Source: an uncultured Candidatus Saccharibacteria bacterium
Lineage (GTDB): Bacteria > Patescibacteriota > Andersenbacteria > UBA10190
Direction: 5' to 3'
Assembly (NCBI GenBank): GCA_964372635.1
Contig: CAYJQW010000005.1
Location: forward strand, 44 to 64,043
DNA: 64,000 bases
The notes beneath the pieces were generated by a model that did no database searches, had not been told where the DNA came from, and saw only the letters and a list, made by a program, of their open reading frames with translations. The position numbers and the translations under genes are program-made. Shown here piece after piece: positions 2,695-56,554 of the stretch. Positions within the stretch are counted from its first letter, which is position 1, and every line of letters begins with the position of its first letter.

Positions 2695-2726
2695 GCGTTA
2701 GGTTTTTTTCACCTAACGCTTTTTTT
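2695..2726 (+). terminator. Rho-independent terminator (9 bp stem gcgttaggt/acctaacgc followed by T7)
   Basis: Perfect inverted repeat at 2695-2703 and 2711-2719, then ttttttt at 2720-2726. An A-run upstream allows bidirectional function. Confidence 0.65.
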
Positions 2727-3886: not shown

Positions 3887-4099
3887 ATGTGCTTATGCAC
3901 ATATTGTGGATAACGAGTACCTTGTCAGGCTCTTGTGCTGTGTTATCACTAAATAGAAGTCAAATCCGTGTGTTTTTAGGGGGAAGGGACTAGAGGCACA
4001 GTATTAATATCTGTGTTTTTTTATATCCATGCGAAACATGCGTATCTGTAAAATGACAATCATCAATACTCTGAAACTTTTGAAAGGAGGTGAGTACAG

Positions 4100-5236
4100 A
4101 TGATGACTAACCTAAAGAAGATTCTCTTCAGTGTATCTGCGCTCGCCTTTGCTTTTGCCATCACGGCTGCGCCAGTTATGGCTGCCGAGGTAGACGTAGA
4201 AGGGAACAACACGAACACTGGAGCTGACTCAGACAACGACAACGACTTCGATATTGACAACGACGTAGATGTTGACGTTGATAATGACGCTGACATCGAT
4301 AACGATGCTGACGTCGACGCCGATACTGGTGATAACGAACAAAATGAAAACACTAATGCCGGCGACCTCGAATCCGGGGTTGTGGACTTGTCAGGTGAGT
4401 GGGAAACCATCGTAAATGGTGGTGCTTCACTCTTGAGTGCTAGTACTGGAGATTTAGATGTCGAAGCCGACTTCGTAAACGACACAACTGGTGCTGACTC
4501 AGACAACGACAACGATCTTGACGTTGATAACGATGTTGATCTCGACTTGGACAATATAGCCGACATCGTGAACGATCTCGACTATGACGCCGATACTGGT
4601 GATAACGAACAAAATGAAAACACTAATGCCGGCAGTCTAATGTCGGGTGACGCTTCATTAATGTTTGACATCTTTAACGAAGCTAACAACGATGCTGGAT
4701 TCGCTGGCGCCGCTGGTAGCGACGTGATAATTGATGTCATTGGTGAGAACAACACCACAGGTTCCGATTCAGACAATAGCAACGACTTCGATATTGACAA
4801 CGACTTCGACTATAGTGTCGATAACGATGCTGATATTGATAATGATGTTGATGTAGACATCGACACTGGTGATAACGAGCAAAACGAAAACACCAATGCC
4901 GGTGACTTAAAGTCTGGCAAAGCCGAAGTGGTAGTGTCTCTCAACAATTCCGCCAATAACGGAAGTAGCGCCTCTAGTGCATATACAGGAAATCTCGGTG
5001 TAAAAGCCGACTTCTTAAACGACACAACTGGTGCTGACTCAGACAACGACAACGACCTCGACGTTGATAACGACGTAGATGTTGATGTTGATAATGACGC
5101 TGACATCGATAACGATGTTGACGTTGATGCCAACACTGGTGATAACGAACAAAACGAAAACACCAATGCAGGCAGTACAAAATCAGGAGATGTGAGCATT
5201 GAGCTCAACATTTCTAACGAAGCTAACAACAGCTAG
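4100..5236 (+). CDS. Secreted, extremely acidic tandem-repeat protein (poly Asp-x-Asp/Asn tracts; 4 repeats of ~90 aa)
   Basis: Strong RBS aaaggaggtg 7 nt upstream. Signal peptide ending AAPVMA|AE. Four repeats each carry SDNDND(F/L)D(I/V)DNDVDVDVDNDADIDND.DVDA(D/N)TGDNEQNENTNAG. Confidence 0.75.
   Translation: MMTNLKKILFSVSALAFAFAITAAPVMAAEVDVEGNNTNTGADSDNDNDFDIDNDVDVDVDNDADIDNDADVDADTGDNEQNENTNAGDLESGVVDLSGEWETIVNGGASLLSASTGDLDVEADFVNDTTGADSDNDNDLDVDNDVDLDLDNIADIVNDLDYDADTGDNEQNENTNAGSLMSGDASLMFDIFNEANNDAGFAGAAGSDVIIDVIGENNTTGSDSDNSNDFDIDNDFDYSVDNDADIDNDVDVDIDTGDNEQNENTNAGDLKSGKAEVVVSLNNSANNGSSASSAYTGNLGVKADFLNDTTGADSDNDNDLDVDNDVDVDVDNDADIDNDVDVDANTGDNEQNENTNAGSTKSGDVSIELNISNEANNS
4212..5180 (+). 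repeat. Four tandem ~270 bp near-identical DNA repeats inside the acidic protein gene
   Basis: Units start near 4212, 4488, 4758 and 5028 (periods 276, 270, 270). The first and fourth units are almost identical at nucleotide level, e.g. ggtgataacgaacaaaa(t/c)gaaaacac(t/c)aatgc. Confidence 0.7.
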
Positions 5237-5264
5237 TTTACTAACTGTAAGTGACCTTCGTGTC

Positions 5265-5292
5265 AGGAGGGTAAGTGTCTACTTACCCTCCT
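5265..5292 (+). terminator. Perfect 12 bp hairpin (aggagggtaagt-gtct-acttaccctcct) 30 nt after the stop; terminator-like, no U-tract
   Basis: Inverted repeat read directly. No T-run follows, so it may be a stability element or a leaky terminator between two co-directional surface-protein genes. Confidence 0.4.
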
Positions 5293-5387
5293 CCACGAGC
5301 GTCAAATGGTATAGTAGGGCGCTTTAACAATGAATTAACTGTAGAAATCTAGTGTAAGAAACAGGATCAATAAAAAATAATCTTCCT

Positions 5388-8300
5388 ATGATTCACCTAA
5401 AATTAAAAAGAATATATCTGAAAAAAACCGCAGCTGTTTTTATCATACTATGGTTTAGTCTACTGCCAACTGTCTCAGCTCTGGCTCAGGATGCCGTTGA
5501 CGCCAACGGTAATCCAACTGGTCCAACGGGCCCAACTGGTCCAAAAGGCCCAACTGGTGCTCCAGCATGTACTGGCGCTGGTTGTGGACAAGGAGTAGGA
5601 CAGGGTGAAAATCAAGGCGGGCCGAGCTCGGCTGATTTAGGTGCGGATGAAAACGGAAATTTACCTGAAGGTGTTGTCGACACAAGACAAGGCGCAAATC
5701 AGGGTAAATCTCAGGGCATAGTCAATGGTACGACTGCCACTAACAGTAATACTGGTTCAGGATCAAGCAATACAATTGACTCAGACACAAATAACTCGTC
5801 CTCGGCTACAACAAATAATACTGTCGCTGATAACACTGCGGCGACGGCAACGGCTACAACTGGCAGCAACACACAAAGCAAAAACACTAGTGCCAACGGG
5901 ATAACTTCTGGGAACGCCAGTATCAGTGCGACGGTTGTCAAAACAGATAACACGGCAACAATTGGCGGAACTGCTGGTTTATCTTCACAGCAATATGCCG
6001 GCACCTACAATGGTGATTATGCCGTCGGTTTTGGTGCCGGCACGGCGGCCCTGACTGGTGCCAGCGGGCCAAAATCATATCAGCTGACAAATCAGGTGAC
6101 CGGTTCTAATTCAACTAATGACATTAACGTTTTTACTACCTTAGAAGAACTGGTTGAAGTGCAAAATGATGGCAAGATAAATAATGATCTTAATGTTACG
6201 GCCGACACTGGTAATAATGCGGCCAACGAAAACACCGGTAATGGCTCGATCGTCACAGGCAATGCTAATGTGGCCGCAACTTTGGTTAATTTACTGAATA
6301 CAACTATCATCAACGGCGACCTCTGGATAACGGTCGCGGACATTTTCGGCAATTTGCAAGGCAATATCAATATTCCGGCTATGGCCAGCTATTTCTCAGG
6401 AGTTGTCGGTGGCGGCCTGGCTCTTGATGCCGGCAATTTAACCACCGGCTCAGACTCGCTTAACACGATTGCTGTTGATATAGATGATGTTGAGACATTT
6501 GATGTTACCAATGATGCTAAAATAAAAACAGCCGTTAATGCCACAGCGAATACGGGTAACAACGACACTATCTCTAACACCGGCGGCGGCTCGATCAATA
6601 CCGGCAATGCATCTGTGGCTGCCAGCAATGTTACGTTGGCTAACACAACGATTGAAGGCGGCAACTGGGGACTGTTTGTGGTCAATGCTCTGAACGGTTT
6701 TCTTGGTTTTTTGGTCGGTGACAACGGCAGTGTTAAAGCTCTCTCCCAAGATGAAACAATTCGTGAAATTACCGCTTATAATGACACTACCGGCGCAAAT
6801 TCTGTTAACACCATTGCAGTTACTGATGAACAGACACGAACCACAACCGTCGACAATGACGCTACAATCACCAATACAATCACGGCACTAGCTAATACCG
6901 GTGATAACGACGCTAATAGAAATACCGGTCAGGGAATTATTTCTACTGGGGATGCCGCTATTACTGCTTCAGCGATAAACATTGCGAATACAACAGTTAA
7001 AGATGGTTCTCTCTTTATTGCGGTTGTCAATGTCTTTGGTGATTGGTTTGGTGAACTTTTCTATGGTGGCAGCTCGCTGGCTCAAGCTGCAGCCAGCCAA
7101 GCGGCTGCCAATCAGGAAATTTCCCTAAACGTTGAGAATAATTCCACAGGATCTGAATCAACTAACACAGTTGATGTTGATGTTGATCGCTCGCATACGA
7201 CAACCATTACTAATGATGCTGACCTAGAATTTTCTCTTACGGCGGATGTGAATACCGGTGGTAATCGAGCTAATAAGAATACATTAGGGGCTAGTATTGA
7301 TACAGGTAATGCATTCTTAGCTCAGTACTCCCGAGCGGTAGCCAACGTGACCGGCGTGGCTGGTCCGGGCGGTCTGATTGTAAACGCCGACTTCACAAAT
7401 TCGGAAACTGGCTTTGATTCTAAAAATACTATCCGTGCCGATATTAATGACGAGCGAATTATCACTATCACAAATAACGCCAATCTCAACACCCTGCTTG
7501 GGTCATTAATTACTCCGGCGCTTGTTAATACCGGCCGCAATGAAGCCAATCAGAATACAATTGGTGGTGGTATTCAAACCGGCAACGTCAATGTTGATGC
7601 GGTGATTGCTAATCTCGTGAATAAAGTCCTAATCGCCTTGTCCGGAGAAGGGGTCGAGATCGATGCTACTTTTGTAAACACGTTGACAGGTGCCTTATCA
7701 ACCAATCTTAATGATCTGAATGCGGTGCGAACAGTACTCGCCACAGTGCTCAGTGATGCTGTCATAGACAATATTATTAACCTGTTGCTAAACACCGGCG
7801 CCAATATGTCTAATGAAAACACTAGTGCCAGCCTATCTGGTGCTGACGGCTTTAGTGCTCAAGCGACAGGTAGCGGCTCATCAATTGCCACTGGTGATAT
7901 TTGCGTAAACGGTGTGGTCACTAATAATGCTAATGCGTTTGGTATAAACGTAGATATTTCACAGAATGTAGATAATAACACCATCATCAATAATGATGTG
8001 ACCATTGACTCTACTACGGGCCAAAACGAGCAAAATAGAAATACTAGCGGTGCTCAAAATAATTCGACTGGAACCTGTGCGAAGTTAGCTCAAGTGCCAC
8101 CTGACAATAATCCACCAATGACTGGTGGAACGATCACACCACCACCTGTCGGTGGTGGTTCGGTAAATAGCACTGAGGTAGAGGCAGAAGACAGCGTCAG
8201 TGAAAGTGGTGCAGATAGTCAACCAATCGTGGCTGGTGTGTCATCGGCAAAAACACGGGTCGGATCTAATAGTATTCTTAAGCGTTTTCCGGTGGCGGGT

Positions 8301-8453
8301 AGTGAATCAATAGCTAAGTGGCTCTCAGGGTATCGAAATCCCGCTTGGCTGTATTTTTTAATTTCAGCCTTAGCTCTAGCAATCGTAGCCTCTTACTGTG
8401 ACAAAAAAGCACGGCAAGCCTTAGTTCTACCTGTGCCGATTGAAGCTGTCTAA
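5388..8453 (+). CDS. Large (1021 aa) secreted T/N/G-rich repeat surface protein with N-terminal collagen-like GPT triplets and a C-terminal TM anchor
   Basis: Signal peptide, then GNPTGPTGPTGPKGPTGAP. At least 7 divergent ~110 aa repeats carry (A/V)(D/N)TG.N.AN.NTG.G.I.TGNA.VAA...N.ANTT. The C-terminus AWLYFLISALALAIVASY plus CDKKARQ forms a TM anchor; no LPXTG motif. Confidence 0.7.
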   Translation: MIHLKLKRIYLKKTAAVFIILWFSLLPTVSALAQDAVDANGNPTGPTGPTGPKGPTGAPACTGAGCGQGVGQGENQGGPSSADLGADENGNLPEGVVDTRQGANQGKSQGIVNGTTATNSNTGSGSSNTIDSDTNNSSSATTNNTVADNTAATATATTGSNTQSKNTSANGITSGNASISATVVKTDNTATIGGTAGLSSQQYAGTYNGDYAVGFGAGTAALTGASGPKSYQLTNQVTGSNSTNDINVFTTLEELVEVQNDGKINNDLNVTADTGNNAANENTGNGSIVTGNANVAATLVNLLNTTIINGDLWITVADIFGNLQGNINIPAMASYFSGVVGGGLALDAGNLTTGSDSLNTIAVDIDDVETFDVTNDAKIKTAVNATANTGNNDTISNTGGGSINTGNASVAASNVTLANTTIEGGNWGLFVVNALNGFLGFLVGDNGSVKALSQDETIREITAYNDTTGANSVNTIAVTDEQTRTTTVDNDATITNTITALANTGDNDANRNTGQGIISTGDAAITASAINIANTTVKDGSLFIAVVNVFGDWFGELFYGGSSLAQAAASQAAANQEISLNVENNSTGSESTNTVDVDVDRSHTTTITNDADLEFSLTADVNTGGNRANKNTLGASIDTGNAFLAQYSRAVANVTGVAGPGGLIVNADFTNSETGFDSKNTIRADINDERIITITNNANLNTLLGSLITPALVNTGRNEANQNTIGGGIQTGNVNVDAVIANLVNKVLIALSGEGVEIDATFVNTLTGALSTNLNDLNAVRTVLATVLSDAVIDNIINLLLNTGANMSNENTSASLSGADGFSAQATGSGSSIATGDICVNGVVTNNANAFGINVDISQNVDNNTIINNDVTIDSTTGQNEQNRNTSGAQNNSTGTCAKLAQVPPDNNPPMTGGTITPPPVGGGSVNSTEVEAEDSVSESGADSQPIVAGVSSAKTRVGSNSILKRFPVAGSESIAKWLSGYRNPAWLYFLISALALAIVASYCDKKARQALVLPVPIEAV

Positions 8454-8510
8454 CTGATATTAGATAAAACTTGTCAGGAAACTTTGGGCGTTGTAAACTG
8501 ATGCGTTACC

Positions 8511-9425
8511 ATGAATAAATTGACTAACAAACAATTGAGTTGGATCTTAGCAGGAACTGTTGTCACTCTATTCATTGTGTTAGCGCTTGGTTTTCAACAA
8601 AGATCACTCCGTCAGGGACAAGTAATTCGAGCTGCCTTAGATAAATTAACGATTACTGAATCCCTCCACGCTAAAGCCGATTTTACTATGCATCTACCTA
8701 AGCGATTACGAAATATTCAGCGGCCATTTCGAGAAGTGCATGTAACTATTGAGGGGGATGTTAAAAAAGATGAAACTAATTTTCCACAGATAACCGGTAA
8801 ACTAAACGGAGACTTGACGGGCCCCGGTAATACATTCTTCTTTAACGGTGATGTACGTATTTTCAATGACGCCGTCGCTTTTCATTTGGTTGACTTTCCT
8901 GCTCTTTTAAATCCTCGCGGAACATTGTCGAACCGATGGACATATGTACCGACGAGTCTGCTCTCGACAAAAAATGGCAGTGATGTAACAAGAGAACTCA
9001 AAGACCTAGCTTCAAACTTAAAGTATAAAGGCACTAAAAAAATATCAGGTATTTCGGCCTATCATTACACCGGATCATTTTCAGCTGAACAAGAACAGAC
9101 TTTAAGTACTATATTGGGCCGGGCAATATCAGGGAATTTGGCCCTTGATGTCATCGCTCGACTACTTGCCGCAAATAATGTGAAATCATTTGACCTTTAT
9201 GTAAATACTAAAACCAATGAAATCACCCGACTGGCAATTAATTTTGTGCGACCCCTGACTAACGGTTCTGAAGTTTCAGTTGTCGATCTTAACCTTTCTT
9301 TTACGGATTATGGAAAGAAGGTTTCCATTGACCGGCCAGAGGAACAAGCAAAGGCCAGACCAGAAATCTTTGCCAAGCTGTTTGGCACGTCGAATGTTGG
9401 TTCTGTAACTGTTGAAGCTAATTAA
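8511..9425 (+). CDS. Signal-anchored extracytoplasmic hypothetical protein (304 aa)
   Basis: Single N-terminal TM (SWILAGTVVTLFIVLALGF), then a soluble domain with no motif I recognise. Confidence 0.5.
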   Translation: MNKLTNKQLSWILAGTVVTLFIVLALGFQQRSLRQGQVIRAALDKLTITESLHAKADFTMHLPKRLRNIQRPFREVHVTIEGDVKKDETNFPQITGKLNGDLTGPGNTFFFNGDVRIFNDAVAFHLVDFPALLNPRGTLSNRWTYVPTSLLSTKNGSDVTRELKDLASNLKYKGTKKISGISAYHYTGSFSAEQEQTLSTILGRAISGNLALDVIARLLAANNVKSFDLYVNTKTNEITRLAINFVRPLTNGSEVSVVDLNLSFTDYGKKVSIDRPEEQAKARPEIFAKLFGTSNVGSVTVEAN

Positions 9426-9447
9426 TTTTAAGTAATTACCTGATCTC

Positions 9448-11226
9448 ATGACCTATTTGCCGCGCGCTTTTTTTCTAGGCTTAAGCCTTGTTACTTTGTT
9501 ATCTGCCTCTATCCCACTGGTACCAATTCAGGCCGAAAGTACTGATGAGAATGTATATCTCGTTGTTGAATTAAAAGATACTACGAATGATCCGACAACC
9601 GATAAAGTTTTACGCCGACAATTAAGAGACGTCCGAAGTCTAAGTGACCGTTTGCCGCGCAACTATATAGCCGATGGAAAAAAATTGCGCACGCAAGATT
9701 TACGTCGCTGGCGAGTTGTTGCAGTACCAAGCAGCCGTGCCGATGTTTTACTAGCTGAGCTAAAAGCCAATCCAGCCGTCATTTCAGTTCGCCGCGAAAA
9801 TATCTATCAAACAACTCAATTAACTAACGATCCATTGCTGCCGCAGCAATATGCGCTGAGTGGTAGTCCTGGTATTTCTGTTCAAGCGACATCGGCCTGG
9901 GATAAAACGACAGGGTCGGGTAATACCGTTATAGCGATTATTGACGGCGGGGTCGATCTAACTCATGAAGATTTGATGGGAAAAATTTGGAAAAATCCTA
10001 AGGAAAGTCAAAACGGTCGGGATGATGATGGTAACGGCTTCATTGATGACATCTATGGCTGGGATTTTGTCACAAACCAGCCGGTCAGTTATGCGCACAA
10101 GCACGGCACACACGTGGCGGGCATTGCCGCCGCCAGTGGTAATAACGGCAAAGGTATATCTGGCGTGAATCACGGAGCGCGAATAATGTCTGTGCGGGTT
10201 TTAAACCAGTCTGGACTTGGTCGTGAAGAATGGATCGTTCGCGGAATCGAATACGCCGTGGCTAATGGTGCTAAAATTATTAATCTTAGTATTGCCGGCT
10301 CAGTTTCGGCACCTATGTTAGATGCCATTGAACAAGCTTATGCAAATAATGTCTTGGTTGTAGCCGCAGCCGGCAATAGTGGTCTTGATACAACTTTGCG
10401 CAAAGTATATCCGGTTTGTGCTGATCGTAATGGTATCAATATGGTCCTTGGTGTTGGGGCCACCAATAGTAAAGGTGAGCCGGCGCGTTTTAGTAATTAT
10501 GGAAGTTGTGTTGATGTTTCTGCTCCCGGGGATGATATATTAAGTACAACGCCGGGTAACCGCTATCAAGAAATGAGCGGTACTTCTATGAGTTCACCCT
10601 TGGCGGCCGGCATCGCCGGTTTATACCTGGCACAAAACCCAGGAGCGAGCCCAAGCCAGGTAATCGGGCGTTTGCGCGATTCGCTTGATTCATTTTCGGG
10701 TAGTAAGGCAGCTCTCTGGAACGCGAGATATAAAGGTAAATTAAATGCTGCCAAAGTGGTTGGTGCGCCGGCAGTGTCGGTGCCCTTGCCGACAATTTCG
10801 CCACAACCTTCTACCTCACCGGCATCTCCGCCAGCTACTCCCCAAGCTAATAATCCGGCAGAATTATCGATTGAGCTAGCTGGTCCCGGTGAAAATAAGC
10901 GCGGCACATCTTTCGTTTATACTATAACTGTTCGCAATAGCGGTGGTAGTTCGGCTACCAATGTTCAAGCGATCGCCGATATTGACCGCGACACTAATTT
11001 TATCTCTGGAGCAGACTGCAGTTTAGATGGCCGTGATGTAGTTTGCAGTCGCAACAGCCTTAGTGCTGGCAGCACCACCAGTTTTGCGATAACCGTGGAC
11101 GTGGCTGATGGTGCGCGTTGTAACTCGTCTTTACGCAGCCGAGCCACTGTCTACATGGATGAAAGAGGACGCAGCCGGCGGCAAGATAATAGCGAACGAC
11201 TAAAAACAACCGTGACTTGCGAATAG
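9448..11226 (+). CDS. Secreted subtilisin-like serine protease (peptidase S8) with Pro-rich linker and C-terminal DUF11-like beta-sandwich domain
   Basis: Catalytic triad blocks AIIDGGVD (Asp), HGTHVAGIAAASGNNG (His) and GTSMSSPLAAGIAGL (Ser). Ca-binding-like DDDGNGFIDD. Linker PQPSTSPASPPATPQ, then TYTITVRNSGGSSATNV (DUF11-like). Confidence 0.85.
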   Translation: MTYLPRAFFLGLSLVTLLSASIPLVPIQAESTDENVYLVVELKDTTNDPTTDKVLRRQLRDVRSLSDRLPRNYIADGKKLRTQDLRRWRVVAVPSSRADVLLAELKANPAVISVRRENIYQTTQLTNDPLLPQQYALSGSPGISVQATSAWDKTTGSGNTVIAIIDGGVDLTHEDLMGKIWKNPKESQNGRDDDGNGFIDDIYGWDFVTNQPVSYAHKHGTHVAGIAAASGNNGKGISGVNHGARIMSVRVLNQSGLGREEWIVRGIEYAVANGAKIINLSIAGSVSAPMLDAIEQAYANNVLVVAAAGNSGLDTTLRKVYPVCADRNGINMVLGVGATNSKGEPARFSNYGSCVDVSAPGDDILSTTPGNRYQEMSGTSMSSPLAAGIAGLYLAQNPGASPSQVIGRLRDSLDSFSGSKAALWNARYKGKLNAAKVVGAPAVSVPLPTISPQPSTSPASPPATPQANNPAELSIELAGPGENKRGTSFVYTITVRNSGGSSATNVQAIADIDRDTNFISGADCSLDGRDVVCSRNSLSAGSTTSFAITVDVADGARCNSSLRSRATVYMDERGRSRRQDNSERLKTTVTCE

Positions 11227-11276
11227 TTTCCTTGTATATAATTAAGCGGATCAAAAACTTCCGCTAGAACAACTGA

Positions 11277-13073
11277 GTGCTACACTTGGAGGATATGGCT
11301 GAACGTATCCCGTCTGAAATGTCCGATCAAGATTCGGTATTAGATGAACCAAGTATTGCCAGCGACGAAGACACAGTTATCGGACAGGGTGACGTTGATA
11401 CAGAATTAGAAAACATAGCCTGGAAATTTACTGGTGAAACGACACTTGGTCTTGCCGAACAACATCAAGAAGCTAATCGCCTTAACAGTTTTCTAACAGA
11501 TAAATCAAATAAATTGTCGCAGCCAGCGCTGGAACGCGCTGATACTTTATTAGACAGACTGCGGGACACACGATGGGATAAGGAGGATTTTAATGCAACC
11601 TTTGGCAGTGAAGCTCGACATGTGGACATGGTATTAAAAAGTCCGGCAGGATTTAACCAAGTTGAAAAAATATTAGAAGATCTAAAAGAACGATCTTTTT
11701 CTGAAGTTTGGCGGGATGCCAAGGAAAGGGTAAGCCATGCCGAAGATATTCGTGCCTTATTAGTGGCTGGCGTTTTGCTCCGTGATGCCAATCGAGCCCA
11801 TGCTAATAGTCCTCGAGATATAGGTCAATTGCCAGATATGGATTCCTATAAAAAACAGCATGATAATCTTGAAACTGTCTTGTTAGGCGATTATATATGC
11901 CGTCTTGCCGAAAGCCATTATTTTCAAGAAGCAGGGGACGAGCAAATCGCGCAGCTAGCTCTAAAAAGAAATGGTGCAGAAGATATTAATCACACTATTG
12001 ATCAATTTCGGCCTTATTTGTTGAGTGAGCGGGTACCAAAAATTGTTAAGCAGAACATAAAGAAAACAGTGGCGACACTTCGTGTTGCCCGCCGGAGTTT
12101 AGAAACAGCAAGAGATGCAATTGATTTAGGGGCAAACAATGCAACAGCCATACCAAAAAGAGGTCAAACTTCTCCTGAAGATATATTTATCACGCCGGGT
12201 AAATTAACAGAGGCTGATGTAGTCGCTGCCACAGCGATGGAACAAGAACAAGCCATGGTTGAACTGACACGTGACTTATCTTATGCGACGCTGCAGAAAT
12301 TGAGTGAACCGGCGCGAACACAGCGTCTGGAAAAATTAATTAATGAGCAGCACAATCCCGATTGGCGGCGAAGACAAGCGCAACAAGAATTGGCTCGATG
12401 GCGAGAAGAAGACATAAATATTGCCTATATAGACTGGATATATCAAGTTGTCCACACCGTATCAATTGAGAGTGGTAATTCAGAAAAACTACAGACATCA
12501 GTCGACAATAATAATTCAGCGAATCGGGAAAAACATCGAAAGAAATATGCGGAACTGATGCAAAATGAATTGGGCTATGGTGATACTTTGCAGGAAGGTG
12601 GCTTCTTAAACAATATAACGTCTAACTGGCTCGAACCCTTGGCAGCCAAAATGCAAATGTTTCGTAACCCGCTCAAGTGGTTTAGCCGTCATGGTCAACA
12701 AGAGCTTCAGGTGGCGCGCCATGATTTAGCTGATACTTATAGACAGGCCGCTGAGTCAGCAGAATCTAATCTGGATGGTATTCAGCGGGAGATATTACGA
12801 GAGCTGGCTGATCGTCTGGAACAAATTACGCTGCGAGAGATGCAGGGTGGATTTGAGCCACAGCGGGATTTAGTGGAGCCTTGGAAACAATTGTTGCCCA
12901 TATTGCCTGATACATCGGTAGAAGAAGACGATGACGATTTGATAATTGACGATGCTGATGAGGCAGAGAATAAGTACCCGGTACCTCCAATGTTGCCGAT
13001 GCCTGATGGCACCTATGAACCAAAGCGGCGGGGGCGCTCTTGGTGGCGAATTATCTTTCCATTTCTAAACTGA
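11277..13073 (+). CDS. Hypothetical acidic cytoplasmic protein (~598 aa; alternative start ATG 11295)
   Basis: Long D/E-rich ORF with no TM and no motif I recognise. A GGAGG lies only 2 nt before ATG 11295; the frame opens at GTG 11277. Confidence 0.45.
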   Translation: MLHLEDMAERIPSEMSDQDSVLDEPSIASDEDTVIGQGDVDTELENIAWKFTGETTLGLAEQHQEANRLNSFLTDKSNKLSQPALERADTLLDRLRDTRWDKEDFNATFGSEARHVDMVLKSPAGFNQVEKILEDLKERSFSEVWRDAKERVSHAEDIRALLVAGVLLRDANRAHANSPRDIGQLPDMDSYKKQHDNLETVLLGDYICRLAESHYFQEAGDEQIAQLALKRNGAEDINHTIDQFRPYLLSERVPKIVKQNIKKTVATLRVARRSLETARDAIDLGANNATAIPKRGQTSPEDIFITPGKLTEADVVAATAMEQEQAMVELTRDLSYATLQKLSEPARTQRLEKLINEQHNPDWRRRQAQQELARWREEDINIAYIDWIYQVVHTVSIESGNSEKLQTSVDNNNSANREKHRKKYAELMQNELGYGDTLQEGGFLNNITSNWLEPLAAKMQMFRNPLKWFSRHGQQELQVARHDLADTYRQAAESAESNLDGIQREILRELADRLEQITLREMQGGFEPQRDLVEPWKQLLPILPDTSVEEDDDDLIIDDADEAENKYPVPPMLPMPDGTYEPKRRGRSWWRIIFPFLN

Positions 13074-13140
13074 TATCATATTTACCAGTTATGAAATTTC
13101 CTCGCCGTGAAGCGTCATTTGTGCGCTATACTACTTTAAT

Positions 13141-13623
13141 ATGGCTTCATTTACCGAACGCTCTCCAAATGAGAAGGAAACATTAATTTTTGATTCACCG
13201 GATAAAGCGCGAGAATTCACTGAAGCAGCCCAGGAAAAGATTTCTAAAGAGAAGCGCAATGGTATGCGGCGTGACCGTGAAATTGTTGCCGAAGCTGTAG
13301 CTAACGAATTTGCACAATCTGGTCACGCTGTTCATTCGCTAAAAAAGCCGTGGCAGCATACCCCAGAAGAGCATGTTGAAGTAGAAGATCTGACTGACTT
13401 GGCATTTTCCAAAGACTTAACGACGGCGCTCCGCAAAGCAAAAGTTAGCCGCCACTATCCGCGCAATCTTGACCTTTTTCACGATGTCTTAACGGGGGAG
13501 CTTTATGAAGCTTTACGTGAGCACAAGCTTCATAAGCAACCCCTGATTGGCTGGACTATACTAACACTCAGTGTGGTTATAATCTTCTTTATCATTTTTC
13601 TACTCGTTCTTCTAACCTTATAA
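13141..13623 (+). CDS. Small tail-anchored membrane protein (160 aa, C-terminal TM) immediately upstream of the VirB4-like ATPase
   Basis: Soluble charged N-terminus, then GWTILTLSVVIIFFIIFLLVLLTL at the extreme C-terminus. Confidence 0.4.
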   Translation: MASFTERSPNEKETLIFDSPDKAREFTEAAQEKISKEKRNGMRRDREIVAEAVANEFAQSGHAVHSLKKPWQHTPEEHVEVEDLTDLAFSKDLTTALRKAKVSRHYPRNLDLFHDVLTGELYEALREHKLHKQPLIGWTILTLSVVIIFFIIFLLVLLTL

Positions 13624-13739
13624 ATAATGAATGGCCCATGTCGAATATATAGGGATAAAGAATAGTAATGATTGGTTCTACTTTGTCCAAACTATTTCTG
13701 CTCGAAGTTTTTCTCCTTGAAACATAGATACTTATCTTC

Positions 13740-16226
13740 ATGTCTTTCTTATTTACTCTAATTTTAATTTTGTCGTCGGTTTTTGCCACGGCCTTGTTCC
13801 TTTGGCTTATTTGGCAGACAATTCGCGAGCATGCCCGCCTGCGACGGACACTGGACATTGTCATGATGCAGGTTATGGTTCCAAAAGACTTAACAAAAGA
13901 AGAACGTGAAGAAGGCGTGGGGCAGGCCATTAAAGAGCGTATTGCGGTGGCAGAACAGTGGTTGTCAACTCTGGCCAATCTGCCAATAAAGTCACTAGAT
14001 CGCCTGATATATGGCCGGCCAATTCTCGTTCTTGAAATAGCCGCTCGTCAGGACGGAGTAATCGCTTTTTATGCTGGTACGGAGAGACGCTTTGCTGATC
14101 ATCTTGAGAAGCAAATTTATGCTTTTTATCCCGAGGCTGAAGTGGCGTTAGTCTCTGACTATACTATTTTTGAGTCAGGGGACACGATGAAATTTGGCTG
14201 GTTGCAATTACAGGAAAAACATCACTTGCCCTTGGCCACATATAAGGAGCTAGAAGCTGATCCGATGCAGGCTATGACAGGGGCACTGGCGAAACTACAA
14301 GATGGTGACGCGGCGGTGATTCAATTTGTCTGTCAAGCTGCGGGTAAAAGAGTTCACAAAAAAGGTCGGCGGGCGGCCCGTAAAACCATGCAAGGCAAGC
14401 AATTTGATGTTAGTGGTAATGGTCTTGGTATTAGATCAATCCGCGATGCCCTCACCAAGACAAAAGATGATAAGGCGGCAGCTGAAGCCCAAGCTGCCAA
14501 GCTGACACCGCGTTCTCAGGAGAGAGTTGAGTTAGTCGAGCAAAAGGTAGCTCAGCAGCAATTTTCTGTTAATATTCGCCTTGGCGTCTCAACAAGGCAA
14601 CCTGAAGATGCGGAACGTGCCTTTAATGCAGTTGTCGGTGCCTTTACTCAATATGATTTGCCAGATCTAAATCGATTGCGGTTACGGACAGTTAAAAAAC
14701 AGTCACCATTCATTCGTAGTTTGATTTTTCGTATCCCGCGTCCAAAAACAGCTAGCGCCTTGTCGACGACAGAGCTCACCTCGCTGTTTCATTTTCCGTT
14801 GCCAACAACGGCCACTCCCAACATTCAATGGCGAGGTGCAAAAAATGCTCCCGTTCCAACCGACATGCCAACTGAAGGGATGTTGCTCGGGCACAATGTT
14901 TATCGCGGCATTAATACACCGGTCTATTTACAAAGTGATGATCGCCGTCGTCACTTGTACCTTATTGGACAGACAGGCACCGGCAAAACCACATTATTTT
15001 TCAATATGATTATTCAAGATATTGTCGCCGGCCATGGGGTTGGTGTGGTTGATCCGCATGGTGACTTAATTGAAGACATTTTACTTCATATTCCAAAGGA
15101 GCGTACCAAGGATGTAATTCTTTTTGATCCGCGAGATACCGAAAGGCCACTCGGTTTCAATATTCTGGAAGCACGCGATCCGGCTCAGAAAGATTTAGTG
15201 GTCAATGAAGTTGTTCAAATCCTGCAGAAACTTGCTGCTCGTCTTAATCCTGAGTCTATTGGACCAATGTTTGAGCACTATTTGCGCAATGCCTTATTGG
15301 CGCTCGCGCAAGATCCCAATGCTACTTTAATTGATGTACCGCGAATGTTTGTTGATGATGGCTTTCGTCAAGCCATATTGAAACTAGAACAAGATCCTAC
15401 CGTCAGGCAGTTCTGGGAAAAAGAATATGCTCAATCGCAACGCGGCCAGATGTCAGCGGATATGTTGAGTTATGTGGTGAGTAAATTAGGGCGTTTTATT
15501 GGTAATGTGGTTGTTCGCAATATAATCGGTCAATCTCATTCTAGCTTTGATGTCCGAGAAGTCATGGATCAACAAAAAATATTATTATGTAACTTATCCA
15601 AGGGCCATCTTGGTGATATCAATGCTGACTTGTTGGGCTTTGTTCTGGTCTCAAAAATACAGATTGCAGCTCTTGGCCGAGCTAATGTGGCGGAAGATAA
15701 ACGTCCTGATTTTTACCTTTACTTAGACGAATTTCAAAACTTTACAACTGATAGTATTTCAACAATTCTTTCCGAAGCTAGGAAATACCGTCTTAACCTC
15801 AATTTGACCCACCAATTTATCCAGCAATTAGAGGAAAATATTCGTGAGGCAGTTTTTGGCAACGTTGGTACAGTGATCAGTTATCGTATTGGTGTTGAAG
15901 ATGCTGAATTTATAGCACCGCAGTTTTCGCCAGTGTTTGCTGAATATGACCTAGTTAATTTGGAGAGGTTTACAGCAGTTGCTCGGCCGTTGGTTAATGG
16001 CACTCCAGCACGATCTTTCAGTTTGCGTATTGCGCCGCCACCGCTAAGTGGTGATCCCGAGACCAGAGAATTAATTCGTGAACAGTCAAAGCAACGCTAT
16101 GGACGCTCCAAGGTTTTGGTTGAGGAAGAAATCATCAAGCGGTTTCAAATTGGTGATCCTAAAGCCGCGCCAAAATCGGGGGCTGGCGGGGACTACTTAA
16201 GTGAGTCTTTGTTCGACATAAAGTGA
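13740..16226 (+). CDS. Membrane-anchored FtsK-HerA superfamily P-loop ATPase, VirB4/TraC-like (828 aa)
   Basis: N-terminal TM. Walker A LYLIGQTGTGKTT is at ~residue 405-415, followed by VGVVDPHGDL. Walker B YLYLDEFQNF is at ~residue 660. Size and Walker A position match VirB4-type ATPases rather than VirD4. Confidence 0.55.
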   Translation: MSFLFTLILILSSVFATALFLWLIWQTIREHARLRRTLDIVMMQVMVPKDLTKEEREEGVGQAIKERIAVAEQWLSTLANLPIKSLDRLIYGRPILVLEIAARQDGVIAFYAGTERRFADHLEKQIYAFYPEAEVALVSDYTIFESGDTMKFGWLQLQEKHHLPLATYKELEADPMQAMTGALAKLQDGDAAVIQFVCQAAGKRVHKKGRRAARKTMQGKQFDVSGNGLGIRSIRDALTKTKDDKAAAEAQAAKLTPRSQERVELVEQKVAQQQFSVNIRLGVSTRQPEDAERAFNAVVGAFTQYDLPDLNRLRLRTVKKQSPFIRSLIFRIPRPKTASALSTTELTSLFHFPLPTTATPNIQWRGAKNAPVPTDMPTEGMLLGHNVYRGINTPVYLQSDDRRRHLYLIGQTGTGKTTLFFNMIIQDIVAGHGVGVVDPHGDLIEDILLHIPKERTKDVILFDPRDTERPLGFNILEARDPAQKDLVVNEVVQILQKLAARLNPESIGPMFEHYLRNALLALAQDPNATLIDVPRMFVDDGFRQAILKLEQDPTVRQFWEKEYAQSQRGQMSADMLSYVVSKLGRFIGNVVVRNIIGQSHSSFDVREVMDQQKILLCNLSKGHLGDINADLLGFVLVSKIQIAALGRANVAEDKRPDFYLYLDEFQNFTTDSISTILSEARKYRLNLNLTHQFIQQLEENIREAVFGNVGTVISYRIGVEDAEFIAPQFSPVFAEYDLVNLERFTAVARPLVNGTPARSFSLRIAPPPLSGDPETRELIREQSKQRYGRSKVLVEEEIIKRFQIGDPKAAPKSGAGGDYLSESLFDIK

Positions 16227-16325
16227 ATGAGTTCTGGATGTTAGAAAGGGGCAATATACTGCAAATGTTGAATTTAATTTTCTAGTACTTGCTCAATCTG
16301 CAGTCCTTGTTACGATGATAATCAT

Positions 16326-17531
16326 ATGAATTATGAAAAAAATGAAGAATCAACGAGTAAACATTCAGCAACTATTGAGCTCAGGTCTGATGTTAAATCG
16401 GATATAGTTAAACCGGTCAGCGGCAGTTTGTTAAAGACAATTAAAGGTCCTCACTATATTGGCTGTATCGGCCTTGTATTAATTCTTATCCTTATTGTTG
16501 TTTTTGGGGTGTATGCAGCTAAGAGAAATGTTACCAAATCAACCGAAGAAAGGACTGATAACGGTATTTTTGGACAATTGCCATTTGCTTCTGAACAGGA
16601 AAAAGTTGCCACGACGAGCGGGTTGTCAGGTAAAACTTGTGATCACCCGACCCGGCGACCAATTGGCGTAATGTTGGCCGGGGATCCGATTAATCGGCCG
16701 ATATCAGGCTTTAGCCAAGCCGATATGGTCTGGGAATTACCAGCCCTAGTCAGTAATGTGACCAGATTATTAGCTGTGTATCAATGTGGTGAGCCGACTG
16801 ATATTGGTTCCGTTCGTTCAGCCCGGCATGATTATCTTTTCTTGGCGGACGGAGTTGATGCCATTATCTCGCATTGGGGGGGTAGTTACCACGCATTAAA
16901 TCGAATCAATGCTGGGGAATTTCAATCATTGGATGCGCTGGTTAATCCCAGTCAGGCATTTTTCCGGAAGTCCAACTTACCGGCGCCGTATAACGGTTTC
17001 ACTACCTATGCCAACCTATGGCGAGCTCTGCAGGACGCTGGTTATAGGACTGAAGCTAATTTCAAGGGATATGAGTTTAAAGATGATATTAATCCAACTG
17101 AGCGGCCGGCCGGCGGCAAGCTATCTATTAATTGGCCAGGACAGTTTCGTGTGCATTATGAATATGATCCACAAACGAATCGATATGTACGTTTTTGGGC
17201 TGGCATCAAGCAAATTGACGCTGCTGATAAACAAGTTGTTGCCCCAAGTGCTGTTGTCGTGATACGTGCCACGAATGAGTTTGCCGATGGTCCTGGTGGA
17301 TATAATGATGTGGGTATCCAAGGCTCAGGCACAGGAACAGTTTTTCAAGATGGCCAGTCGATCAATATCACTTGGTCAAAGAGTACAACTAAGTTTAATG
17401 ATCCTATGATATTTACTAATGCTGCCACCGGCCAACCTGTAATTTTTACGCGTGGACAGGTTTGGATAATGACACCAAGTTCCAACATTGATGTCACCTG
17501 GGAACCATTAGCTACTACAACTTCCCCTTAA
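16326..17531 (+). CDS. Signal-anchored DUF3048 family protein (YerB-like)
   Basis: Single TM, then blocks typical of DUF3048 N- and C-domains (PIGVMLAGDP...RPISGFSQADMVWE...ARHDYLFLADG...ISHWGGS). Confidence 0.55.
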   Translation: MNYEKNEESTSKHSATIELRSDVKSDIVKPVSGSLLKTIKGPHYIGCIGLVLILILIVVFGVYAAKRNVTKSTEERTDNGIFGQLPFASEQEKVATTSGLSGKTCDHPTRRPIGVMLAGDPINRPISGFSQADMVWELPALVSNVTRLLAVYQCGEPTDIGSVRSARHDYLFLADGVDAIISHWGGSYHALNRINAGEFQSLDALVNPSQAFFRKSNLPAPYNGFTTYANLWRALQDAGYRTEANFKGYEFKDDINPTERPAGGKLSINWPGQFRVHYEYDPQTNRYVRFWAGIKQIDAADKQVVAPSAVVVIRATNEFADGPGGYNDVGIQGSGTGTVFQDGQSINITWSKSTTKFNDPMIFTNAATGQPVIFTRGQVWIMTPSSNIDVTWEPLATTTSP

Positions 17532-17617
17532 GCAGAAGACCGGAATATAGTCATTCCCAAAAAAAATCACTCTTAAGTTTATTTGCTTATTAATGCCTGA
17601 TTCACGATGCTTAAGAG

Positions 17618-18547
17618 ATGCAATATTTCTATGGTGAGGATACATATGGTGCCCGGGAAGCAATTGTTAAAACTGCTCATGATAAGAACGCAACCATTGT
17701 TTGGCTAGATCGTGATTCTCTCTTAGATCATGCTTTAACTGACATCTTCTCTGGTCAGACCGGACTCTTTGGTCTAACCTTAACAATTTTTCGTGATCCC
17801 TCAACTCTACCCCAAAATTTATTAGGAGAGTTAGTTGAGTTGATTAAACAAAGCAAAAACGCTAACACCATATTATGGGATCGTACCAAGCCTGATCGGC
17901 GATCCGTGTTTTGGAAAACATGCCAGAAATTTTCCCGGGAGTTTCCAGCTTTATCATCGTTGCAGCTCTGCTCATGGCTTGCCATGTTAGCTAAGAAACA
18001 ACATGGCACTATTGACTTAAAGGCGGCACGACATCTTGTTTCAAGGATCGGCCCAGACCGTTGGCGTCTCTTATCAGAGTTGGACCGGCTATTATTGATC
18101 AATGATAGTGTGACCGAAGAGTTAGTAAAAAAAGAAGTAACCGACCAAACTGTTACCGATATCTTTCCACTTCTTGATTTTTTATCAAACGGAGATCAAA
18201 AAAATGTTATCAAGCATCTTGAGCTGTTGCTCGAGCAAGGGGATAGTGAGCTATATATTCTCTCTATGCTGGCGTATCAGTTTCGGGTTCTGCTCATGGT
18301 GAATTATGGATTACGTTTGGGAAAAAACCTGCGGGAAATTTCAAGTGAAGGAAAGCTTCATCCGTATGTTGTCGAAAAAAATAGTCGGGCGGCCGCAACA
18401 TTCACCAATCAATATCTGCAAGATACCCTCACTAAAATCATGGCTACTGATGTTGCTATAAAACAAGGCAAACTTGATGCCAGAACAGGACTTATTATGC
18501 TCATTTCTGGTCTGCTTAAAGAAAAAGCTCTATTGACTGATCAATAG
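17618..18547 (+). CDS. holA: DNA polymerase III delta subunit
   Basis: N-terminal MQYFYGEDTYGAREAI matches the delta-subunit start pattern. Size is ~310 aa, and holA often neighbours rpsT. Confidence 0.5.
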   Translation: MQYFYGEDTYGAREAIVKTAHDKNATIVWLDRDSLLDHALTDIFSGQTGLFGLTLTIFRDPSTLPQNLLGELVELIKQSKNANTILWDRTKPDRRSVFWKTCQKFSREFPALSSLQLCSWLAMLAKKQHGTIDLKAARHLVSRIGPDRWRLLSELDRLLLINDSVTEELVKKEVTDQTVTDIFPLLDFLSNGDQKNVIKHLELLLEQGDSELYILSMLAYQFRVLLMVNYGLRLGKNLREISSEGKLHPYVVEKNSRAAATFTNQYLQDTLTKIMATDVAIKQGKLDARTGLIMLISGLLKEKALLTDQ

Positions 18548-56542: not shown

Positions 56543-56554
56543 CGGATATACGTT

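Follow-up and report, generated by a model that had tools for sequence, protein, structure and literature searches.

A chromosomal T4CP-type ATPase and its small upstream partner as a candidate two-gene module in Patescibacteria

The 64-kb window analysed here (the whole stretch of DNA, part of the core chromosome of a Candidatus Andersenbacteria genome, Patescibacteria/CPR) encodes a pair of genes that probably make up a two-gene module: a small helical protein (13141-13623) and a domesticated chromosomal coupling protein (T4CP) ATPase (13740-16226), serving as a substrate motor linked to a type IV secretion system (T4SS). We put the probability of this reading at about 0.6. Its sequence makes the 828-aa ATPase a T4CP of the VirD4/TrwB type, not a VirB4. 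The first-pass annotation described six co-directional ORFs here, together with the motifs of the ATPase. All six are in place, with intergenic gaps of 22-116 bp, and a promoter and terminator scan that did no better than on shuffled sequence gives no convincing element between the genes.

8511-9425: 304-aa protein with a single N-terminal hydrophobic segment (residues 7-30)
9448-11226: 592-aa S8 protease, matching Pfam Peptidase_S8 (2e-53) and DUF11 (2e-9)
11277-13073, + strand: 598-aa acidic protein (109 D+E against 74 K+R) with no TM segment and no Pfam match
13141-13623, + strand: 160-aa small partner protein ("type A") with a C-terminal TM segment (residues 132-160)
13740-16226, + strand: 828-aa membrane-anchored T4CP-like ATPase, a DUF8128 N-terminal domain followed by a TrwB-like motor
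16326-17531, + strand: 401-aa protein with DUF3048 and DUF3048_C (Pfam) and a TM segment at about residues 38-70

The DUF3048 protein is membrane-anchored and extracytoplasmic. Pfam scans show only housekeeping genes among the other large ORFs across the 64 kb, in agreement with the earlier observation that VirB6, VirB8 and VirD4-partner genes are absent from the window; a bona fide FtsK is encoded at 39204-41474.

Family, domains and predicted fold of the ATPase

The ATPase was first placed in the FtsK-HerA superfamily, correctly, and it belongs to the type-IV-secretion branch. The accompanying label "VirB4-family" survives for the fold of the N-terminal domain only, while by sequence it gives way to VirD4/TraG/TrwB-type T4CP. 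The Pfam models proposed as a check on that label, CagE_TrbE and AAA_10, give no match; instead, T4SS-DNA_transf (PF02534, 37.5 bits, cut-off 20.1), TrwB_AAD_bind (PF10412, 25.9 bits, cut-off 20.5, over residues 398-699) and TraG-D_C (PF12696, 25.5 bits, cut-off 22) all score above their cut-offs, and DUF87 barely does (25.3 bits, cut-off 23.2). NCBIfam matches are to TraD and VirD4-like CD1115, with a weak one to the archaeal DNA-translocating ATPase CedD; VirB4_plasma reaches 14 bits where its cut-off asks for 590. Sequence matches in the PDB are to TrwB and DotL for the single protein and for the family profile alike, and the family profile finds no VirB4 there. PADLOC reports mad8 (2.6e-10) and HerA (about 2e-4), both covering only generic P-loop regions. 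The first-pass annotation would have given up its reading had the best matches been to HerA/helicase families with no co-conserved membrane components; the best matches are to secretion families, and co-conserved membrane components are indeed missing.

13743-13853, + strand: N-terminal TM helix (residues 2-38 as one long helix in the AF2 model, 1-28 by hydropathy)
13857-14789, + strand: DUF8128 N-terminal domain, about residues 40-350 (precomputed PF26449), predicted fold like the VirB4 N-terminal domain
14967-14990, + strand: Walker A GQTGTGKT, residues 410-417 (motif scan)
15180-15527, + strand: all-alpha insertion in the motor, about residues 481-596 (AF2 secondary structure)
15714-15737, + strand: Walker B YLYLDEFQ, residues 659-666, in YLYLDEFQNF (motif scan)

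The protein also carries the motif VVDPHGDL, and across 39 diverse homologues the residues G410, G413 and K416 of Walker A and D663 and E664 of Walker B are invariant. The basic stretch REHARLRR after the TM helix would, under the positive-inside rule, give an N-out, C-in orientation and a cytoplasmic ATPase. In the full-length AF2 model (pLDDT 86.9) seven helices lie between strands 459-462 and 614-618, an insertion that appears positionally equivalent to the all-alpha domain of TrwB/VirD4. Foldseek matches to this model are TrwK, TrwB, HerA, DotL and Cagbeta, with TrwK/VirB4 ranked first (about 900 columns aligned, E 1e-15) and TrwB aligned over about 450 columns (target TM 0.58-0.67). The DUF8128 domain, which has no sequence match in the PDB, gives a model of its own (pLDDT 85.1); in Foldseek against the PDB, R388 TrwK/VirB4 fills the first 14 places (E 5e-7 to 4e-4, probability 1.0, TM 0.42-0.48), followed by unrelated proteins at E > 3e-3. 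Judged from these models, the VirB4 resemblance is confined to the DUF8128 domain and to the level of fold, so the original VirB4 impression was half right.

A full-length homologue is found on Bacillus plasmids (hhalign E 3.6e-53 over columns 79-777, 656 aligned, 24% identity), annotated as an 886-aa "DUF87 domain-containing protein" on 24-28-kb plasmids of the Bacillus subtilis group (e.g. NZ_CP032854). Its gene adjoins that of a Replic_Relax relaxase, and TcpC, TcpE, an AAA_10 VirB4 and a large conjugal transfer protein are encoded downstream; this position is the coupling-protein slot of a Tcp-like conjugation operon. The genuine AAA_10 VirB4 aligns to the ATPase family by hhalign with a probability of 2.5%. 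A haloarchaeal plasmid homologue likewise lies within a conjugation cluster. Some proteins related only through the motor domain carry TPR N-termini, and such relatives are also seen on plasmids near transposases.

Gene neighbourhoods and distribution in Patescibacteria

Synteny was compared in four Andersenbacteria relatives, represented by five loci of which two are near-duplicates. Their gene order is polA, CAP (minus strand), a slot that is empty or holds an unrelated ORFan, and then the 160-aa gene, the ATPase, DUF3048 and holA. The block at 1941-11226, between CAP and the ATPase module, is present in this genome only, and none of the five loci has the S8, 304-aa or repeat protein gene beside the module. 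No homologue of the S8, 304-aa or 598-aa protein turns up among 83 loci tested, and a 1021-aa repeat protein has one match in one locus. The surface-protein genes beside the ATPase therefore have no link to its module, and the proposal of a reduced T4SS-like machine serving them is largely refuted; the "orphan ATPase" offered as its alternative is the reading that holds. The 598-aa protein retrieves itself alone from 5.8 billion proteins, and its slot is hypervariable, occupied by unrelated proteins of 544 aa and 585 aa in loci L001 and L085 but empty in L003 and L084; as a candidate member of the module it is unproven. The DUF3048 gene follows the ATPase in all Andersenbacteria loci and in 0 of 80 loci from other Patescibacteria (DUF3048 and holA are found downstream in Andersenbacteria only), and it is probably a lineage-restricted neighbour with no functional part in the module. 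Outside Andersenbacteria, dnaX lies next to the ATPase gene in 23 loci, and genes for a Xer-like integrase, divIC and RNR also recur nearby.

The small upstream gene is the only constant neighbour of the ATPase gene across the phylum. It lies directly upstream in all Andersenbacteria loci (34-43% identity) and, at 19-27% identity, in other Parcubacteria; jackhmmer places this family upstream of the ATPase in 24 loci. The type-A family, which has no Pfam model, numbers at least 200 members, with named sources nearly all Patescibacteria or "bacterium". Each of two reverse look-ups from it led to the position immediately before a DUF8128 ATPase gene, in neighbourhoods otherwise unrelated. More generally, an upstream ORF is present in 75 loci, and in about 60 of them it encodes 120-200 aa and is co-directional with the ATPase gene, often with a 4-bp overlap. 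In the 160-aa protein the N-terminal half is variable or disordered, while the C-terminal domain is helical and conserved and contains the motif YPRNLDLFHDVLT. The idea of a VirB3-VirB4-like pair keeps its conserved partner and loses the analogy to VirB3, since the C-terminal TM tail occurs in Andersenbacteria copies only and the protein is soluble in all other lineages. By sequence, at least three types can be told apart among the small upstream proteins, and types A and B show no detectable homology to each other, so a single adaptor family is not established.

The ATPase family itself has 6246 representative clusters matching at E<=1e-30 and at least 600 GTDB species loci, in Parcubacteria, Microgenomates, Saccharibacteria, Peregrinibacteria and Berkelbacteria, with 62-73% identity inside the class and about 40% phylum-wide. 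It has already been catalogued: Quiñonero-Coronel et al. 2025 (PMC12102498) count 5713 VirD4-type T4CP homologues, spread over 2918 of 3035 Patescibacteria genomes at about two copies per genome, and only 148 of these homologues are near virB4. From shared profiles we infer that our family is that T4CP set. VirB4, less common at 2417 of 3035 genomes, forms a separate clade there; its gene is roughly single-copy and lies near dnaA/dnaN, with TrsD and VirB3 as neighbours (PMC12102498). Queried with the Tcp proteins of a single Bacillus plasmid, so that divergent components may be missed, single-sequence phmmer finds no relaxase, VirB3, VirB4, VirB6 or VirB8 homologue within 8-10 kb of the ATPase in 87 Patescibacteria loci, nor in the 64-kb window.

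Proposed role and rival explanations

In the T4SS-linked reading, the ATPase would assemble as a membrane-bound ring, like TrwB, VirB4 and HerA, and the small upstream protein might bind it as an adaptor or regulator, by analogy with CagZ on Cagbeta and the adaptors of DotL. The ATP-driven motor would recruit a macromolecule as its substrate and drive it toward the membrane, the likeliest destination being the VirB4-based T4SS encoded elsewhere in most Patescibacteria, in a cluster of its own without a coupling protein; the T4SS cluster of S. epibionticum has no recognisable one (PMC10633639). The VirB4-like N-terminal domain could offer a docking surface. Several observations stand against a T4SS link: the search with the Bacillus Tcp proteins finds no T4SS-component genes near the ATPase in the 87 loci or in the window, its neighbours are replication and division housekeeping genes (polA and holA; elsewhere dnaX, the Xer-like integrase and divIC), it has one TM helix, and in S. 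epibionticum the t4cp homologue is non-essential where T4SS genes are essential, according to PMC12102498. The non-essentiality and the neighbouring genes also lend some weight to a possible, if less probable, autonomous housekeeping translocase, an exapted pair working as a T4SS-independent membrane-anchored motor that handles DNA or protein in replication, division or uptake, for example by feeding or pulling DNA at the membrane. The excess of T4CP (2918 genomes, at about two copies per genome) over VirB4 (2417) fits a T4SS-independent role, and the authors of PMC12102498 consider exaptation possible. Core-genome position, strong conservation, recurrent clamp-loader adjacency (holA in Andersenbacteria, dnaX elsewhere), the Xer-like integrase, divIC and RNR genes and the weak CedD match point the same way. 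Set against them, neighbourhoods vary by class, so that replication-gene adjacency may be plain lineage synteny; the window already has its FtsK; no membrane channel partner is co-conserved; and every characterised relative with such a motor acts at a T4SS.

The other explanations are much less probable. It is improbable that the ATPase is the organism's VirB4 orthologue, the energiser of mating-pair formation and possibly a VirB3-VirB4-like fusion: length, two-domain architecture, a TM helix ahead of the N-terminal domain as in such fusions, and the Foldseek ranking (TrwK/VirB4 top at full length and exclusively for the N-terminal domain) would suit it, but the Pfam, VirB4_plasma and PDB profile results and the hhalign contrast between two proteins of the same plasmid (2.5% for VirB4, E 3.6e-53 for the protein in the T4CP slot) do not, and the neighbours reported for Patescibacteria VirB4 in PMC12102498 are absent here. 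We think it very improbable that the ATPase powers a pared-down type IV-like machine for secretion or surface assembly that serves the adjacent S8 and repeat/surface proteins. Co-direction and short gaps would suit it, and the promoter and terminator scan, no better than on shuffled sequence, is neutral, but synteny in the four relatives largely refutes it; the surface proteins are nearly absent from the 83 loci, and the S8 protease and 304-aa protein have N-terminal signal/anchor segments and so would use Sec. Least credible is a HerA/FtsK-type ATPase of anti-phage defence or another mobile system, which could draw on the PADLOC matches, the marginal DUF87 match and the motor-domain relatives with TPR N-termini or on plasmids. 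Defence islands are typically patchy in distribution; the present gene lies in class-wide core-chromosome synteny, is found in about 96% of the phylum's genomes and has no nuclease, methylase or sirtuin partner, and the PADLOC matches cover only generic P-loop regions.

Comparison with known systems

The T4SS-linked module is best compared with the canonical T4CPs, TrwB (R388), VirD4, TraD, DotL and Cagbeta, with which the ATPase shares a RecA-like motor, an all-alpha insertion, Walker A/B, the motif xDPxGD after Walker A and an N-terminal membrane anchor, along with Pfam and PDB sequence matches and target TM values of 0.54-0.67. Its small partner gene recalls CagZ with Cagbeta. Unlike them, it has about 340 extra residues (DUF8128) between anchor and motor, one TM helix where they usually have two, and no relaxase, oriT context or mating-pair-formation genes nearby, being encoded by the core chromosome rather than a mobile element. 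TrwK/VirB4 (R388) is similar in overall size, two-domain plan, N-terminal fold and motor superfamily, but shows no sequence-profile match, an N-terminal TM of only 0.42-0.48, and VirB3, VirB6 and VirB8 neighbours that the ATPase lacks. The Bacillus 886-aa protein matches at full length, N-terminal domain included, and is plasmid-borne in a working conjugation context, whereas the Patescibacteria gene is without those partners. Close homologues are named [quoted passage not shown] by NCBI, with Pfam DUF8128 plus T4SS-DNA_transf or TrwB_AAD_bind. Nearest of all are the patescibacterial VirD4-type T4CPs of PMC12102498; the part of that paper available makes no mention of the VirB4-like N-terminal domain or the small upstream gene, and the T4CPs it describes, likewise chromosomal, far from virB4, without relaxase and near-universal in the phylum, show no essential difference from the 828-aa ATPase.

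Gene run and family assignment of the ATPase

The first-pass annotation described a run of six co-directional open reading frames, taken there for a surface-protein cluster ending in a VirB4/TraC-like ATPase. All six are present, and the ORF listing puts the gaps between them at 22-116 bp:

8511-9425 (+), 304-aa protein with an N-terminal anchor
9448-11226 (+), 592-aa protein with Peptidase_S8 (2e-53) and DUF11 (2e-9) domains by Pfam
11277-13073 (+), 598-aa acidic protein with no TM segment and no Pfam match
13141-13623 (+), 160-aa small partner with a single TM segment at its extreme C-terminus
13740-16226 (+), 828-aa ATPase with an N-terminal hydrophobic helix and Walker A/B motifs
16326-17531 (+), DUF3048 plus DUF3048_C protein (Pfam)

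Judging by the source names of close homologues, the organism belongs to Candidatus Andersenbacteria, within the Patescibacteria/CPR. The remainder of the window is ordinary core chromosome, with holA, rpsT, truB, sugar epimerases, uvrB, ruvA, femAB, a Mur ligase, rpoB, rpoC, recA, ychF, ssb, rpsF and a complete ftsK. Pfam scans of the 64-kb window find no VirB-type genes, including VirB3-, VirB6- or VirB8-type membrane components, and an Rfam scan of the whole window finds no RNA family at gathering score. Predicted promoters and terminators in 8300-17800 are fewer than in shuffled sequence, so they have no bearing on operon limits. From 47600 to 64000 the G+C content rises from ~0.43 to ~0.50, and this block encodes a beta-helix/LysM protein, a GT2 glycosyltransferase, a UDP-glucose dehydrogenase, a MacB-type ABC transporter and two tandem AcrB/RND-family pumps (56555-59647 and 59657-62842). 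In a small monoderm CPR genome, neither RND pumps nor a shift in composition would be expected; possible explanations are an acquired island and a chimeric contig.

Judged by its sequence, the ATPase belongs to the type IV coupling protein (T4CP) branch, not to VirB4. Three T4CP profiles in Pfam score above cut-off (given in brackets): PF02534 T4SS-DNA_transf at 37.5 bits (20.1), PF10412 TrwB_AAD_bind at 25.9 (20.5) and PF12696 TraG-D_C at 25.5 (22). The NCBIfam models for TraD and VirD4-like CD1115 match at E ~1e-12, both under their whole-protein cut-offs. The best PDB sequence matches of the single sequence are TrwB and DotL, which also come out best with a profile built from 39 diverse homologues (4e-7 and 3e-5), and that family profile finds no VirB4 in the PDB at E<=1. 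Neither CagE_TrbE (PF03135) nor AAA_10 (PF12846) matches the ATPase at E<=0.01, NCBIfam VirB4_plasma gives it 14.2 bits against a cut-off of 590, and hhalign assigns a probability of 2.5% to the alignment of a Patescibacteria profile with the AAA_10 VirB4 of a Bacillus plasmid. The PDB search with the family profile and the hhalign probability contradict the idea that this protein is the organism's own VirB4.

The motor motifs are as first described, with Walker A (GQTGTGKT) at residue 410, the VVDPHGDL box, Walker B (YLYLDEFQNF) at residue 659 and the N-terminal helix, and the catalytic residues are invariant among the homologues compared. The "VirB4-family" label attached to them has to be dropped, since the VirB4 sequence profiles go unmatched while T4CP profiles exceed threshold; of the profile families proposed as checks, those of TraG/VirD4 type match, CagE_TrbE and AAA_10 do not, and the HerA-type DUF87 covers only residues 390-447, around Walker A (25.3 bits vs 23.2). 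Assignment to the HerA or FtsK-SpoIIIE translocases is also rejected: members of those families match HerA or FtsK profiles over the motor and have accessory domains (HAS barrel in HerA; alpha and gamma in FtsK), a pattern that the ATPase does not fit. The FtsK_SpoIIIE profile does not match it, and a separate gene at 39204-41474 codes for a complete FtsK with 4TM, alpha, motor and gamma domains. A defence-system reading fails as well, the PADLOC matches (mad8, HerA) being generic P-loop matches only. P0001, an identical protein, is annotated with PF26449 (DUF8128) in its N-terminal region, as are the 120 homologues listed, without exception; this model is missing from the Pfam version scanned, and the assignment is taken from precomputed Pfam annotation.

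Predicted structure adds a second affinity. In the full-length AlphaFold2 model (39 homologues; pLDDT 86.9, pTM 0.78), a single long TM helix (residues 2-38) leads into an alpha/beta N-terminal domain (~40-350), and the RecA-like C-terminal domain contains an insertion of seven helices (481-596), the counterpart of the all-alpha domain inserted in the nucleotide-binding domain of TrwB. In Foldseek searches of the PDB, TrwB chains align with this model over 410-465 columns (target TM 0.58-0.67, rmsd ~6 Å), and HerA is a fold match too, with a target TM of 0.53, below TrwB. TrwK/VirB4 ranks first (E 1e-15) because its alignment, at ~900 columns, runs through both domains. A model of the N-terminal domain by itself (residues 36-375, pLDDT 85.1) retrieves TrwK/VirB4 as all of its top 14 matches (E 5e-7 to 4e-4, probability 1.0, query TM 0.42-0.48), and the matches that follow are unrelated enzymes that trail the weakest TrwK match by ~ten-fold or more. 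Because a sequence profile of this domain has no meaningful match among PDB sequences, its likeness to VirB4 is one of fold. As modelled, DUF8128 has the fold of the VirB4 N-terminal domain, at moderate TM-scores. What survives of the original VirB4-like impression is the two-domain architecture, as a fold with moderate TM-scores, but not the motor, which is T4CP-like by sequence.

The N-terminal transmembrane anchor of the ATPase is a single hydrophobic helix (residues 1-38). Canonical T4CPs usually have two TM helices. The VirD4 of pLS20 is recorded with two (PMC8557374). At the other end, some long family members (P0137, P0141, P0142, P0145, P0153, P0155, P0163 and P0166) carry disordered C-terminal tails of ~440-1200 aa, mostly P/A-rich, or S/Q/P-rich in P0137. 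No Pfam families were found in these extensions; the short motifs PPIGAPPVD and S(I/L)xDITGG repeat among the tails of P0145, P0153, P0155, P0163 and P0166. Such tails recall the partner-binding tails of TraD and DotL, or the FtsK linker.

Homologues in plasmid conjugation modules

A tblastn search of plasmids with the ATPase yields 532 records, 295 of them from Bacillus; the Bacillus records listed are mostly 24-28-kb plasmids typed as "non-mobilizable", including seven of the eight that cover >=80% of the query. On 24-28-kb Bacillus plasmids, such as NZ_CP032854 of Bacillus subtilis (11896-14556), an 886-aa "DUF87" protein matches from the N-terminal domain through the motor (hhalign with the Patescibacteria profile, E 3.6e-53, 656 columns). 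Its gene is directly followed by a Replic_Relax relaxase, then by TcpC, TcpE, an AAA_10 VirB4-type ATPase and a large conjugal transfer protein. By its place beside these genes, the 886-aa protein fills the slot of the coupling protein in a Gram-positive, Tcp-like conjugation operon, where VirB4 is a separate gene. The VirD4 of pLS20 was considered as the Bacillus counterpart and discarded, since pLS20 p48 is a classical 2-TM VirD4 and the homologue lies on a different Tcp-like plasmid family.

Used as a query, the protein from the plasmid's T4CP slot has 91 matches in the window and 87 Patescibacteria loci. The same set contains no homologue of the plasmid's relaxase, TcpC, TcpE, VirB4 or TcpH-like protein, and with these queries no linkage of the ATPase to relaxase/Dtr or mating-pair-formation genes is seen in any of it.

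On the Natrinema plasmid NZ_CP100758 the match (8743-12946; query residues 105-810) spans a 382-aa ORF and the annotated T4CP directly downstream, a pair whose cluster also includes a pilin and a conjugal transfer protein. To judge from this match, two separate genes can encode the N-terminal domain and the motor. A homologue on a Sulfitobacter plasmid has the motor domain only, among transposases, and offers no functional clue.

Genomic neighbourhood and spread across the phylum

In Andersenbacteria (five loci compared, from four relatives, with L001 and L002 near-duplicates of each other) the gene order is polA, CAP (minus strand), a slot, the 160-aa gene, the ATPase, DUF3048, holA, rpsT (minus) and truB (minus). 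In the window, CAP (239-1267, minus strand) and the 598-aa gene are set apart by an insertion of ~10 kb that encodes repeat proteins, the 304-aa protein and the S8 protease and is missing from the Andersenbacteria relatives compared. The S8 protease and the 304-aa and 598-aa proteins have no homologue in any of 83 loci searched, and the 1021-aa repeat protein has a single match, in one of the 83. DUF3048 and holA occur, among those 83, only in three Andersenbacteria loci, and are present in L084 and L085, also Andersenbacteria, as well. The surface-protein genes nearby belong to an insertion specific to this genome and are unrelated to the ATPase module. The surface proteins had been proposed as part of a module with the ATPase, served by it as a cut-down type IV secretion system (T4SS); both the gene order in relatives and the 83-locus search contradict this, and a false lead is removed.

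Two repeat proteins lie within the insertion and are missing from the relatives compared. One, of 378 aa (4100-5236), is D/N-rich with repeated ...DNDxDxDxDTGDNEQNENTNAG units; the other, of 1021 aa (5388-8453), is N/T/G-rich with repeated "TGxNxAxxNTGxGxIxTGNA" units and a C-terminal hydrophobic anchor. Neither has a Pfam family.

The slot between CAP and the small-partner gene is empty in two relatives and holds a 544-aa or a 585-aa protein in two others. These and the 598-aa acidic protein show no similarity in any pairing, and the 598-aa protein is an ORFan, with only a self-match among 5.8 billion proteins. With such varied occupants the slot, immediately upstream of the ATPase module, is hypervariable.

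The small partner is the constant element. Across the phylum a same-strand ORF of 120-200 aa lies directly upstream of the ATPase, often overlapping its start by 4 bp, a description that fits ~60 of the 75 loci having an upstream ORF. There are at least three sequence types. Type A, the family of the 160-aa protein, has a conserved helical C-terminal domain with the motif DPYxLDxFHDxL and is found in 24 loci by jackhmmer (21 of them in one BLAST cluster); its TM tail is confined to the Andersenbacteria copies, the small upstream protein being soluble in other lineages. It has at least 200 database members, with source names nearly all Patescibacteria or "bacterium", and both of the two members looked up lie directly upstream of a DUF8128 ATPase with all other neighbours different. 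Type B, in ~20 loci, ends in ...WLKxIPGVNKFFLEQEAKIKTDKI, and type C is seen in Microgenomates. Examples scanned from these types matched no Pfam model. Types A and B have no detectable homology by hhalign, and we therefore make no claim that the small upstream proteins form one family.

Downstream neighbours are lineage-specific. In 23 loci a ~210-213-aa protein and then dnaX follow the ATPase; a Xer-like integrase is present in 10 loci, and divIC in 8. The ~210-aa protein (10478-11083 in L013, plus 22 other loci) has no Pfam family and a core motif EGVFDGQNMVGPDGKQYxVPANYASKSKLVEGDxLKLTI; loci with it between ATPase and dnaX include those with a type B partner.

The ATPase family comprises 22,341 representative clusters at E<=1e-3 and 6,246 at E<=1e-30, with both N-terminal domain and motor matched in most of the best 150. 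With one genome per GTDB species, at least 600 loci carry a homologue, and the best 80 of these belong to Uhr-, Staskawicz-, Magasanik-, Komeili-, Doudna-, Falkow-, Moran-, Zambryski-, Levy-, Woese-, Curtiss-, Berkel-, Peregrini- and Saccharibacteria. Many loci (L016, L018, L024, L026, L028, L033 and others) bear "uncultured Gammaproteobacteria" or "Bdellovibrionales" titles from TPA binchicken assemblies and have Patescibacteria-typical gene content; of L004 and L078, one is titled Methylomirabilota and the other Bathyarchaeia. Such titles are probably taxonomic mislabels or mis-binned contigs, and these loci were left out as evidence of occurrence beyond Patescibacteria.

This wide spread agrees with a published survey, which gives 5,713 VirD4-type T4CP homologues in 2,918 of 3,035 Patescibacteria genomes, 148 of them near virB4, with VirB4 in 2,417 genomes and 109 relaxases in the entire dataset (PMC12102498). 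In each of L041 and L048 the first ORF of the DUF8128-ATPase cluster is directly followed by another, with an overlap of 1-4 bp (858 aa in L041; 272 aa, at the locus end, in L048). This doubling may relate to the published average of ~2 T4CP homologues per genome, a split gene being the alternative.

Role of the ATPase and its small partner

The ATPase is a T4CP-family ATPase with an extra domain resembling the VirB4 N-terminal domain. Its gene is fixed in the core genome of the whole phylum, paired with a small upstream protein and detached from relaxase and mating-pair-formation genes, and the ATPase does not form one module with the adjacent surface proteins. Like its structural relatives, it would be expected to form a membrane-bound ring, with a putative role in recruiting or translocating a macromolecule. 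We favour a reading in which it works in trans with the Patescibacteria T4SS, which is without a coupling protein of its own, and onto which the N-terminal domain could possibly dock it. The T4SS cluster of S. epibionticum has no recognisable coupling or relaxase proteins (PMC10633639).

A serious rival to action in trans is an exapted translocase that acts autonomously and needs no T4SS, and exaptation of the T4CP homologues is left possible by the survey authors (PMC12102498). Two findings of the survey speak for it: genes of the ATPase type are more widespread than VirB4, and t4cp is reported to be non-essential in S. epibionticum, where the T4SS is essential (PMC12102498). The position of the ATPase gene among replication and division genes also favours it. 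In its broadest form, which we consider unlikely, the pair of small protein and DUF8128 ATPase would be a phylum-universal, T4SS-independent translocation device derived from a coupling protein of monoderm conjugation; at the membrane it could transport DNA or proteins as part of an epibiotic, scavenging life, and the hypervariable slot (the 598-aa protein here) could encode lineage-specific substrates. If such a device were real, the family, by virtue of its VirB4-like N-terminal domain, would stand as a living intermediate between VirB4 and VirD4.

Patescibacteria account for much of bacterial diversity. Their T4SS cluster lacks a coupling protein, yet ~96% of genomes have VirD4-like genes elsewhere, and the window is a clean example of such an orphan gene. 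By its sequence profiles, the ATPase family is one already annotated and counted in the phylum-wide survey (PMC12102498), and the locus adds a member. The passages of the survey consulted contain no account of the VirB4-like fold of DUF8128, of the partner gene that nearly always lies upstream, or of the full-length homologues that occupy the T4CP slot in conjugation modules of Bacillus and haloarchaea. These three points are computational and of moderate weight, and they bear on whether the ATPase feeds the Patescibacteria T4SS or has gained another use. By analogy, the small upstream protein would be a putative adaptor or regulator of the ATPase, for which CagZ with Cagbeta (complex 8dol, among the fold matches) and the adaptors of DotL serve as models.
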